Shown in pieces: positions 52,672 to 53,208 of a stretch of 64,000 nucleotides of DNA. The notes beneath the pieces are model-generated. The model saw only the letters and a program-made list of their open reading frames with translations. It had not been told where the DNA came from and made no database searches. How positions within the stretch are numbered: the stretch's first letter is position 1; the number at the start of each line of letters is the position of its first letter. Both the position numbers and the translations under genes were made by a program. This DNA comes from Escherichia coli (GTDB lineage: Bacteria; Pseudomonadota; Gammaproteobacteria; Enterobacterales; Enterobacteriaceae), in NCBI RefSeq assembly GCF_036507355.1, contig NZ_AP027877.1; one strand, 5' to 3'.

Positions 52672-53208
52672 TCAGAGCATACGATCTGAATCTTCTGGCA
52701 GAGTACTATTCCCTTCACCAAGTTTCATTTGCAGCAAAACCGTGTCAAGCCAGCGGCCATGCTTGAAACCAATGTCCTTTAATGTACCTATTTCAGTAAA
52801 TCCTGCGCGGATATGAAGCGCTACAGAAGCGACGTTAGCGCTGTCACCCACAACAGCAATCATCTGGCGATAGCCTTCGGACTCGGCCCATTTTAATGCA
52901 TGATCGAGCAGTGCTTTTCCGACGCCCTGTCGCTGATAAGCCGAATCAATATATATCGAATTTTCGACCGTATACCGATAGGCATGGCGTTCGCGGTAAC
53001 GGGAAATATAACAGTAGCCGATGACCGTATCGCCATGCAGAGCGACATACCATGGGAATCCTCGAGACTGAATGCTCCTCAGTCGGTTAAGCATTTCCTG
53101 CGTATCCGGAGGTTCGGTTTCGAAGCTACCTGTACCATGCAGAACATGGTGAGCATAGATATTGCGTATCGCGGTAATGTGCTGTTCTTCAGCATTAATA
53201 ATGTGCAT
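52672..53208 (-). CDS. GNAT N-acetyltransferase, phosphinothricin/arsinothricin acetyltransferase-like (ArsN1-like)
   Basis: 178 aa; IRNIYAHHVLHGTGSFETEPPDTQEM ... ENSIYIDSAYQRQGVGKALL pattern; adjacent to ars operon. Confidence 0.5.
   Translation of the reverse strand: MHIINAEEQHITAIRNIYAHHVLHGTGSFETEPPDTQEMLNRLRSIQSRGFPWYVALHGDTVIGYCYISRYRERHAYRYTVENSIYIDSAYQRQGVGKALLDHALKWAESEGYRQMIAVVGDSANVASVALHIRAGFTEIGTLKDIGFKHGRWLDTVLLQMKLGEGNSTLPEDSDRML

Follow-up and report, generated by a model that had tools for sequence, protein, structure and literature searches.

A phosphinothricin acetyltransferase-like gene with a putative orphan LysR-type box beside the arsRDABC operon of Escherichia coli

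The acetyltransferase gene at the ars locus

The window analyzed here is a 64,000-nucleotide stretch of Escherichia coli DNA (assembly GCF_036507355.1, contig NZ_AP027877.1), and the subject of this work is a GNAT gene that it carries next to the arsenic resistance operon arsRDABC (Table 1). On balance, we favor the view that this gene encodes an acetyltransferase that acts on glutamate-analogue toxins and was recruited to the ars island independently. The GNAT branch of phosphinothricin acetyltransferases (PAT) and ArsN1 enzymes, marked by an RxR motif, is known to inactivate the glutamate-analogue inhibitors of glutamine synthetase, such as phosphinothricin (PPT), arsinothricin (AST), and methionine sulfoximine (MSO), through acetylation of the α-amino group. 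The product of our gene is identical to WP_058687313.1, which the RefSeq pipeline PGAP labels merely as "GNAT family N-acetyltransferase," and alignment shows that its start Met is common to all homologues.

As the preliminary description of this locus had proposed, the gene lies directly after arsC and converges on arsRDABC. The operon spans positions 48333 to 52637 on the plus strand, and its last stop codon (52637) is separated from the GNAT stop codon on the opposite strand (52672) by 34 nt, so that the two genes stand tail to tail. The same description had let both transcripts share a bidirectional terminator, of which only the GNAT half holds up. The hairpin in the spacer has a free energy of -18 kcal/mol on the plus strand (z = -2.4) and -19 kcal/mol on the minus strand; a terminator scan called it on the minus (GNAT) strand only, with a U-rich tail, and the tail on the arsC side is poor. 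From its sequence, it would seem to serve the GNAT transcript well as an intrinsic terminator and arsC poorly. The hairpin is kept in the Klebsiella pneumoniae, Citrobacter amalonaticus, and Enterobacter kobei loci.

Protein family and substrate-binding residues

The PAT-like pattern claimed for the protein was borne out. It exceeds the cutoffs of the Pfam models PF00583 (Acetyltransf_1, 67.1 bits; cutoff, 20.7), which places it in the GNAT superfamily, and PF13420 (Acetyltransf_4, 49.9 bits over residues 6 to 157; cutoff, 24.3), and its top solved relatives have all been deposited as phosphinothricin N-acetyltransferases. The best of them is 9igk (E = 7e-52, residues 5 to 173), and the others include 5dwm (7e-42), 4jxq (2e-40), Bar (5t7d, 3e-27), YncA (3e-25), and PpArsN1 (5jtf, 4e-23). 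Identity amounts to 47 to 48% with 9igk and 5dwm, 34% with Bar, 34% with YncA, and 33% with PpArsN1; the reference sequences of PpArsN1 and Bar were verified against their PDB entries, while MddA/YncA and the others are PDB chain sequences. The pyrophosphate-binding loop for acetyl-CoA is present (Q91-R-Q-G-V-G-K97), and its Gly residues (G95 and G97) do not vary across the clade alignment. Glu82 and His132, likewise invariant, align with E88 and H137 of Bar, which are reportedly the catalytic Glu and His of that enzyme. Additionally, dN/dS values of 0.10 to 0.18 against three diverged alleles show that the gene evolves under purifying selection.

The earlier label "ArsN-like" is thus upheld at the level of the PAT/ArsN1/MAT superfamily and its catalytic residues, but not at that of the curated families, since the protein falls under all three cutoffs. 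It scores 146.1 bits against the 210 demanded by the equivalog model for ArsN1 family B (NCBIfam NF040504), 93.6 bits against 170 for ArsN1 family A (NF040503), and 114.9 bits against 300 for the PAT equivalog (NF040502). ArsN1b is its best NCBIfam match; on that model, PpArsN1 reaches 263.2 bits and the nonarsenical MddA/YncA 128.2, so that our protein stands only 18 bits above YncA, and its 10 nearest 50%-cluster representatives score 139 to 175 bits.

Alignment to the characterized ArsN1 and PAT enzymes, which had been suggested as a check, gave a similarly divided answer. The substrate core F29/R72/R74/Y77/Y86 corresponds to F33/R75/R77/Y80/Y89 of PpArsN1, residues that are among the AST and PPT contacts of that enzyme (PMC6465285). 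However, only three of the seven AST-contact residues of PpArsN1 are identical (F, R, and R), and the other four differ (I31 to G27, A76 to E73, A124 to G121, and V158 to T156). These contacts do not decide whether AST is used, because SvPAT also differs from PpArsN1 and yet binds AST equally well; nor do the residues of the pocket tell AST apart from PPT.

Position in the tree and ancestral context

A neighbor-joining tree with 500 bootstrap replicates put the protein in an Enterobacterales clade (94% support), outside the clade of MSO/sulfone acetyltransferases (MAT; YncA and PA4866), which itself has 100% support. Placement close to PpArsN1 occurred in just 3 of the 500 replicates. The phylogeny, also proposed beforehand, thus places the protein with the PAT/ArsN1 enzymes of the superfamily without grouping it with PpArsN1, and the protein is a member of none of the curated ArsN1a, ArsN1b, or PAT families.

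The older members of this Enterobacterales-specific clade form divergent LysR-GNAT units, sometimes with an exporter of the major facilitator superfamily (MFS), and lie away from ars genes. Chromosomal orthologues at 57 to 63% identity adjoin a divergent LysR gene in Pectobacterium, Symbiopectobacterium, and Enterobacter asburiae; in Pectobacterium, an MFS transporter gene lies downstream of the unit, and the LysR proteins of these divergons are mutually orthologous (55 to 57% identity). Orthologues at 69% identity or less have no ars neighbors, and no ars genes were found near the gene in Pantoea, in the genome P0049 (66% homologue), or in Citrobacter portucalensis. When 100,044 species genomes were scanned, 80 relatives at 44 to 73% identity were recovered, and none of the 80 had ArsA, ArsB, ArsC, ArsD, or ArsH within 10 kb (tblastn, with probes blind to Acr3, low-molecular-weight ArsC, and ArsM). 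A Pfam census of 128 immediate neighbors placed no ars family among the top 25, which were headed by Bax1-I, DUF2794, MFS, and LysR.

Putative promoter and LysR-type box

The 130 nt 5' of the gene align with the intergenic regions of the LysR-GNAT divergons. This homology extends as far as the site of the LysR start codon (CAT there, CAG here) and is followed by a hairpin and the stop codon of arsA2, the last gene of a second ars operon. It covers a putative LysR-type box, homologous to those of the Symbiopectobacterium, Pectobacterium, E. asburiae, and Klebsiella sp. divergons; 19 of 23 positions are identical to the Symbiopectobacterium box TTTTCCTTATACGGTTTATAAGC. The T-N11-A form of this dyad is typical of LysR-type regulators. 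No cognate LysR gene is encoded at the locus or elsewhere in the window.

Between the box and the gene lies a putative weak sigma-70 promoter, whose -10 position is conserved in all homologues. Its 17-nt spacer, GTCGCGAATTCCGGTAG, has not changed at any position in the K. pneumoniae allele (WP_004152096.1), although the coding sequences are separated by a synonymous divergence (dS) of about 1, and the box differs between the two alleles at one position. Because spacer and box are conserved between alleles this far apart, we argue that the promoter is in use. A consensus promoter scan made no call there, which would fit an activator-dependent promoter.

No ArsR-operator-like sequence and no similarity to the ars promoter Pars were found in the 5' region of the gene. 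The single 9-mer that it has in common with Pars was discarded, since it falls outside the ArsR dyad and chance alone would give about 0.16 such matches. A palindrome, TAAGT-N6-ACTTA, considered as a covarying operator, was also dropped, as the wider alignment placed the conserved element in the LysR-type box further upstream. The terminator scan did not call the hairpin between arsA2 and the GNAT gene, which would be at most a partial terminator; no canonical terminator was found by the scan between the two genes.

Association with a second ars operon

By tblastn, the gene was found on 1,397 plasmids, 1,038 of them at 80% or more amino acid identity; 966 plasmids, mostly of the IncFIB/IncFII types of K. 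pneumoniae, carry an allele of 80 to 90% amino acid identity. For comparison, 1,206 plasmids carry arsBC at a nucleotide identity of at least 90%. A megablast count of 78 plasmids, according to which only about 6% of the arsBC plasmids have the gene, proved to be an artifact, because the allele that prevails in K. pneumoniae has a nucleotide identity of only 80%. Among complete E. coli genomes, 36 of 5,426 have the gene.

The standard layout, present on about 1,000 Klebsiella and Enterobacter plasmids, is arsR2-arsH-sigma70-arsD2-arsA2-GNAT, convergent on arsC-B-A-D-R. In E. kobei (locus L098; GNAT identity, 72%), two opposite-strand genes stand between arsA2 and the GNAT gene (positions 4549 to 5793 of that locus); these encode a TauE/SafE-family exporter and a 122-amino-acid open reading frame (ORF). 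C. amalonaticus (71%) has arsRBC only and no same-strand ars operon. On Citrobacter chromosomes, the gene is found beside pgaA and lysS-prfB. In Citrobacter werkmanii and C. portucalensis it occurs alone, without ars genes, while in Citrobacter youngae (locus L016) it adjoins a degraded terminator hairpin and a remnant of the arsC 3' end, about 100 bp long (10538 to 10640); because this remnant is there and ars is otherwise gone, the ars genes appear to have been lost and the GNAT gene retained.

Synonymous divergence from the window allele sets the two operons apart. Against K. pneumoniae and E. kobei, respectively, dS is 1.03 and 1.10 for the GNAT gene, 0.82 and 0.85 for the arsA2 3' end, 0.93 and 0.50 for the sigma-70 gene, and 1.33 and 0.91 for arsH, and for arsC it is 0.18 and 0.24. 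When the window is paired with L100, L098, and L003, arsC ranges from 0.18 to 0.58 and the GNAT gene from 1.0 to 1.8. Because the divergence jumps sharply there, we place a recombination boundary at the hairpin between arsC and the GNAT gene. The GNAT gene has long been co-inherited with the second ars operon, and arsRDABC is younger or has been homogenized by recombination, its exchange or homogenization having proceeded independently of the block formed by the GNAT gene and the second operon. A view of the ars link as shallow and accidental was accordingly revised, since the E. kobei and K. pneumoniae loci and the dS values show co-divergence with the second operon. Purifying selection on the GNAT gene persists even though arsA2 carries a frameshift in K. 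pneumoniae and is mostly deleted in the window.

Two further features of these loci deserve mention. An ECF-type sigma-70 gene, an unusual component for an ars operon, is conserved between arsH and arsD2 (L002, 11950 to 12495; L100, 5121 to 5666; L098, 1714 to 2259). On K. pneumoniae plasmids, a second, unrelated GNAT protein of 165 amino acids is encoded divergently upstream of arsR2 (L100, 3247 to 3744; L101, 1246 to 1743); it could be an arsN2-type or an unrelated acetyltransferase.

The wrecked second operon in the window

In the window, the second operon survives in remnants (Table 1). Compared with plasmid pECL_A of Enterobacter cloacae ATCC 13047, a deletion of 2,058 bp has removed the 3' end of the sigma gene, the whole of arsD2, and most of arsA2, and has created a chimeric ORF (53333 to 53866) in which the sigma 5' part is fused to the arsA2 3' end. 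The same deletion is present in the E. coli chromosome NZ_OZ197100.1, a 99.8%-identical segment of which (L001) was used for annotation comparison. At the other end, an IS3-family insertion sequence (IS) stands in place of the arsH 5' end and arsR2. Its far flank is formed by a 325-amino-acid winged-helix regulator like OmpR, CadC, and HilA (55813 to 56790), which is truncated, its frame running into the IS end. The two truncated genes at its flanks suggest that an IS-mediated rearrangement severed the right-hand part of the island; this junction was found in no complete E. coli genome of the collection. Because the same-strand operon is destroyed, arsenic-driven read-through into the GNAT gene would be lost in the window.

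On the other side, directly upstream of arsR, the minus strand carries a three-gene ABC-three-component (ABC-3C) system (45207 to 48173), whose products are a DUF2326 protein, MC6 as the middle component, and one more protein. An anti-phage or conflict function is probable for this module. We regard the region as an integrative island because a tyrosine integrase lies further left of the ABC-3C genes in a related genome.

Table 1. Features of the ars locus in the window
Feature	Position	Strand	Basis or remark
arsR	48333-48683	plus	ORF list and RefSeq annotation of L001
arsD	48731-49093	plus	ORF list and RefSeq annotation of L001
arsA	49111-50862	plus	ORF list and RefSeq annotation of L001
arsB	50910-52199	plus	ORF list and RefSeq annotation of L001
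arsC	52212-52637	plus	ORF list and RefSeq annotation of L001
GC-rich hairpin AAGGGGGC-TGAT-GCCCCCTT	52643-52662		Sole hairpin in the 34-nt arsC-GNAT spacer
GNAT gene	52672-53208	minus	ATG-start ORF, 178 amino acids
Shine-Dalgarno sequence GGAG	53216-53219	minus	7 nt 5' of the GNAT ATG
Putative weak sigma-70 promoter TTAACC-N18-TAGTTT	53236-53265	minus	Sequence alignment
Putative LysR-type (T-N11-A) dyad box GCTTATACAGGTTATAAGT (TTTTGCTTATACAGGTTATAAGT)	53274-53292	minus	Homology to LysR-GNAT divergons
Hairpin ATGGGGC-N4-GCCCCAT	53312-53329	minus	Directly 3' of the arsA2 stop; poor U-tract
arsA2 3' remnant, about 95 codons	53333-53625	minus	Pfam ArsA_ATPase match, pECL_A alignment, RefSeq pseudogene note
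Sigma-70/ECF-type gene, 5' remnant with internal stop	53626-54034	minus	pECL_A alignment
arsH lacking about 57 N-terminal codons	54043-54584	minus	Pfam FMN_red match; L001 homology stops at 54584
IS3-family element	54587-55816	minus	orfA 55474-55758, orfB 54605-55417

Interpretation and alternative explanations

In the reading to which we incline, the enzyme would be an acetyl-CoA-dependent N-α-acetyltransferase of the PAT/ArsN1 (RxR) branch. One sub-lineage of the clade was recruited into the "twin ars" island of enterobacteria, where it closes the same-strand series arsR2-arsH-sigma70-arsD2-arsA2. The recruited gene brought its putative LysR-type box and promoter along, the regulator gene being cut off at its start codon. 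In the window, expression would hang on this orphan promoter, and so on a trans-acting LysR-type regulator or on basal activity, because the second operon has been decapitated by IS3 and gutted by the 2-kb deletion; ArsR and arsenic would not control the gene there.

With regard to substrates, acetylation of PPT is probable and that of AST quite possible. The latter activity is plausible because SvPAT, a PAT-type enzyme encoded outside ars operons, acetylates both PPT and AST, the latter as well as PpArsN1 does (Km for AST, 12 μM versus 11 μM; PMC6465285). On the other side, AST inhibited all species tested except its producer and Pseudomonas putida, which counts against AST as a good substrate. 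Among the inhibited species was Sinorhizobium meliloti, the source of the related 4jxq protein. A role of the gene in organoarsenical resistance, by which the preliminary description would extend the island beyond inorganic arsenic, is a plausible possibility.

Several considerations weigh against an independent recruitment. The HMM cutoffs mark annotation confidence and not substrate. The separation of the GNAT radiation from PpArsN1 and Bar has 12% bootstrap support, the deep branches among the PAT-like enzymes are weakly supported, and the protein may share with ArsN1b an ancestor that other PATs do not have. The LysR-type box is a putative one, read from homology. Since no U-tract follows the hairpin behind arsA2, intact plasmids may allow arsenic-induced read-through into the GNAT gene. 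Long co-inheritance with the second operon and retention of the gene during the decay of arsA2 are also expected of a true ArsN function, and our literature searches returned no study of the enterobacterial plasmid GNAT or its clade.

The strongest alternative is that the gene encodes a genuine ArsN1-type enzyme, selective for AST, which belongs to the arsenic island and responds to arsenic together with the second ars operon where the island is intact. Its terminal same-strand place on some 1,000 plasmids, a dS that matches that of the second operon, purifying selection kept while arsA2 was frameshifted or deleted, the missing canonical terminator after arsA2, the best NCBIfam match to ArsN1b, and the conserved F/RxR/Y core all speak for it, as does the definition of ArsN by location in ars operons given by Nadar et al. 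(PMC6465285). However, we consider it unlikely, though by no means negligible, since the protein scores under all ArsN1 cutoffs and barely over MddA, shares 33% identity with PpArsN1, and differs at four of seven AST contacts. The context argues in the same direction: the gene has its own conserved LysR-type promoter, with a box inherited from non-ars ancestors; it is separated from arsA2 by two opposite-strand genes in E. kobei, adjoins arsRBC without a same-strand ars operon in C. amalonaticus, and is retained without ars genes in sister Citrobacter species; and in the window, the ars operon upstream of it is destroyed. A related and bolder proposal, which we also hold to be doubtful, is that of a third, independently recruited ars-island acetyltransferase lineage ("ArsN1c") that may already be spread on about 1,000 sequenced conjugative plasmids of Klebsiella and Enterobacter and may confer AST resistance; its source would be a toxin-resistance unit under LysR control, and after the loss of its regulator it would have become coupled to arsenic by read-through from arsR2-arsH-sigma70-arsD2-arsA2.

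It seems rather improbable, and more so than a genuine ArsN1 enzyme, that the gene is a pure hitchhiker with a nonarsenical substrate (PPT, MSO, a tabtoxinine-like compound, or another amino acid), mobilized with ars on one chromosomal segment. The ancestral LysR context, with or without MFS and free of ars genes, would suit such an origin, as would the Citrobacter chromosomes with the gene beside pgaA and lysS-prfB, the C. youngae locus that lost ars and retained the gene, and the names MSO acetyltransferase or Bar that some annotators give to it. Yet the protein has F and RxR in place of the W and RxF of the characterized MSO enzymes, three alleles that have diverged to a dS of about 1 still keep the adjacency to ars, and all RxR-type enzymes tested to date accept AST. 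We give hardly any weight to the idea that the gene is a silent relic in the window, intact and unexpressed since its activator gene was lost and upstream transcription abolished: the orphan box without a cognate LysR in the window, the weak -35 and -10 elements with no promoter-scan call, and the destroyed upstream operon would be expected of a relic, but a dN/dS of 0.10 to 0.18, a reading frame intact in all alleles, and a promoter spacer perfectly conserved between alleles at a dS of about 1 argue for use.

Significance

AST is a proposed lead antibiotic for carbapenem-resistant Enterobacter and further priority pathogens (PMC6465285). Should the enzyme acetylate AST, clinical Klebsiella and Enterobacter would already carry transferable resistance on their common ars/pco/sil plasmids, in a determinant to which PGAP gives a generic GNAT name instead of ArsN1. 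Otherwise, the locus warns that a PAT-like gene next to ars is insufficient for an ArsN1 call, and it would point to another glutamate-analogue toxin selecting the gene in enteric bacteria. Should the "ArsN1c" proposal hold, it would be a second, convergent case of the "Pavlovian" wiring from arsenic to herbicide resistance described for PhoN1 of P. putida. The putative orphan LysR-type box would be a concrete example of the rewiring of a captured gene after loss of its regulator. The importance of the gene comes mainly from how widely clinical plasmids carry it and from the proposal of AST as an antibiotic.

Comparison with known systems

The closest solved relatives, 9IGK/9IGL, 5DWM, and 4JXQ, come from other genera and were deposited as phosphinothricin N-acetyltransferases. 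In common with our protein, they have a loop AVIGxSxN that is longer by one residue and the C-terminal motif GFKHGRW(L/V)DTV, and they too fall under the ArsN1b and PAT cutoffs (144 and 141 bits). The 9igk protein is 90% identical to the product of a chromosomal gene of Pseudomonas tremae, at whose locus no ars genes lie within 10 kb; literature searches found no publication on the origin or substrates of 9IGK.

The MSO/sulfone acetyltransferases MddA/YncA of Salmonella and E. coli (3DR6) and PA4866 belong to the same superfamily, have a similar C-terminal RWLD motif, and show 31 to 34% identity to our protein. However, the MAT enzymes carry W(30) and R-x-F-x-G-F-R, whereas our protein has F29 and R72-E-R74-H-A-Y-R and so lies outside the MAT group. 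With Bar/PAT of Streptomyces (5T7D; NF040502), it has in common the catalytic Glu and His, the K/RxR motif, the F residue, and the "AV(I/V)G" strand; unlike the Streptomyces PAT gene, ours lies outside any phosphinothricin biosynthetic cluster.

PpArsN1/PhoN1 of P. putida KT2440 (5JTF, 6M7G; NF040504) has the same GNAT fold and belongs to the same PAT-like superfamily, and its acidic catalytic residue D85 corresponds to E82. In contrast to that enzyme, the PPT contacts V86 and G122 are N and V in our protein. The defining trait of PhoN1/ArsN1 is co-transcription from Pars (PMC11637737); our gene is convergent on arsRDABC, which cannot co-transcribe it because it lies on the opposite strand, and has a putative LysR-type promoter of its own in place of read-through from Pars. 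On intact plasmids, however, it resembles PpArsN1 in being the last same-strand gene after an arsH-containing ars operon.

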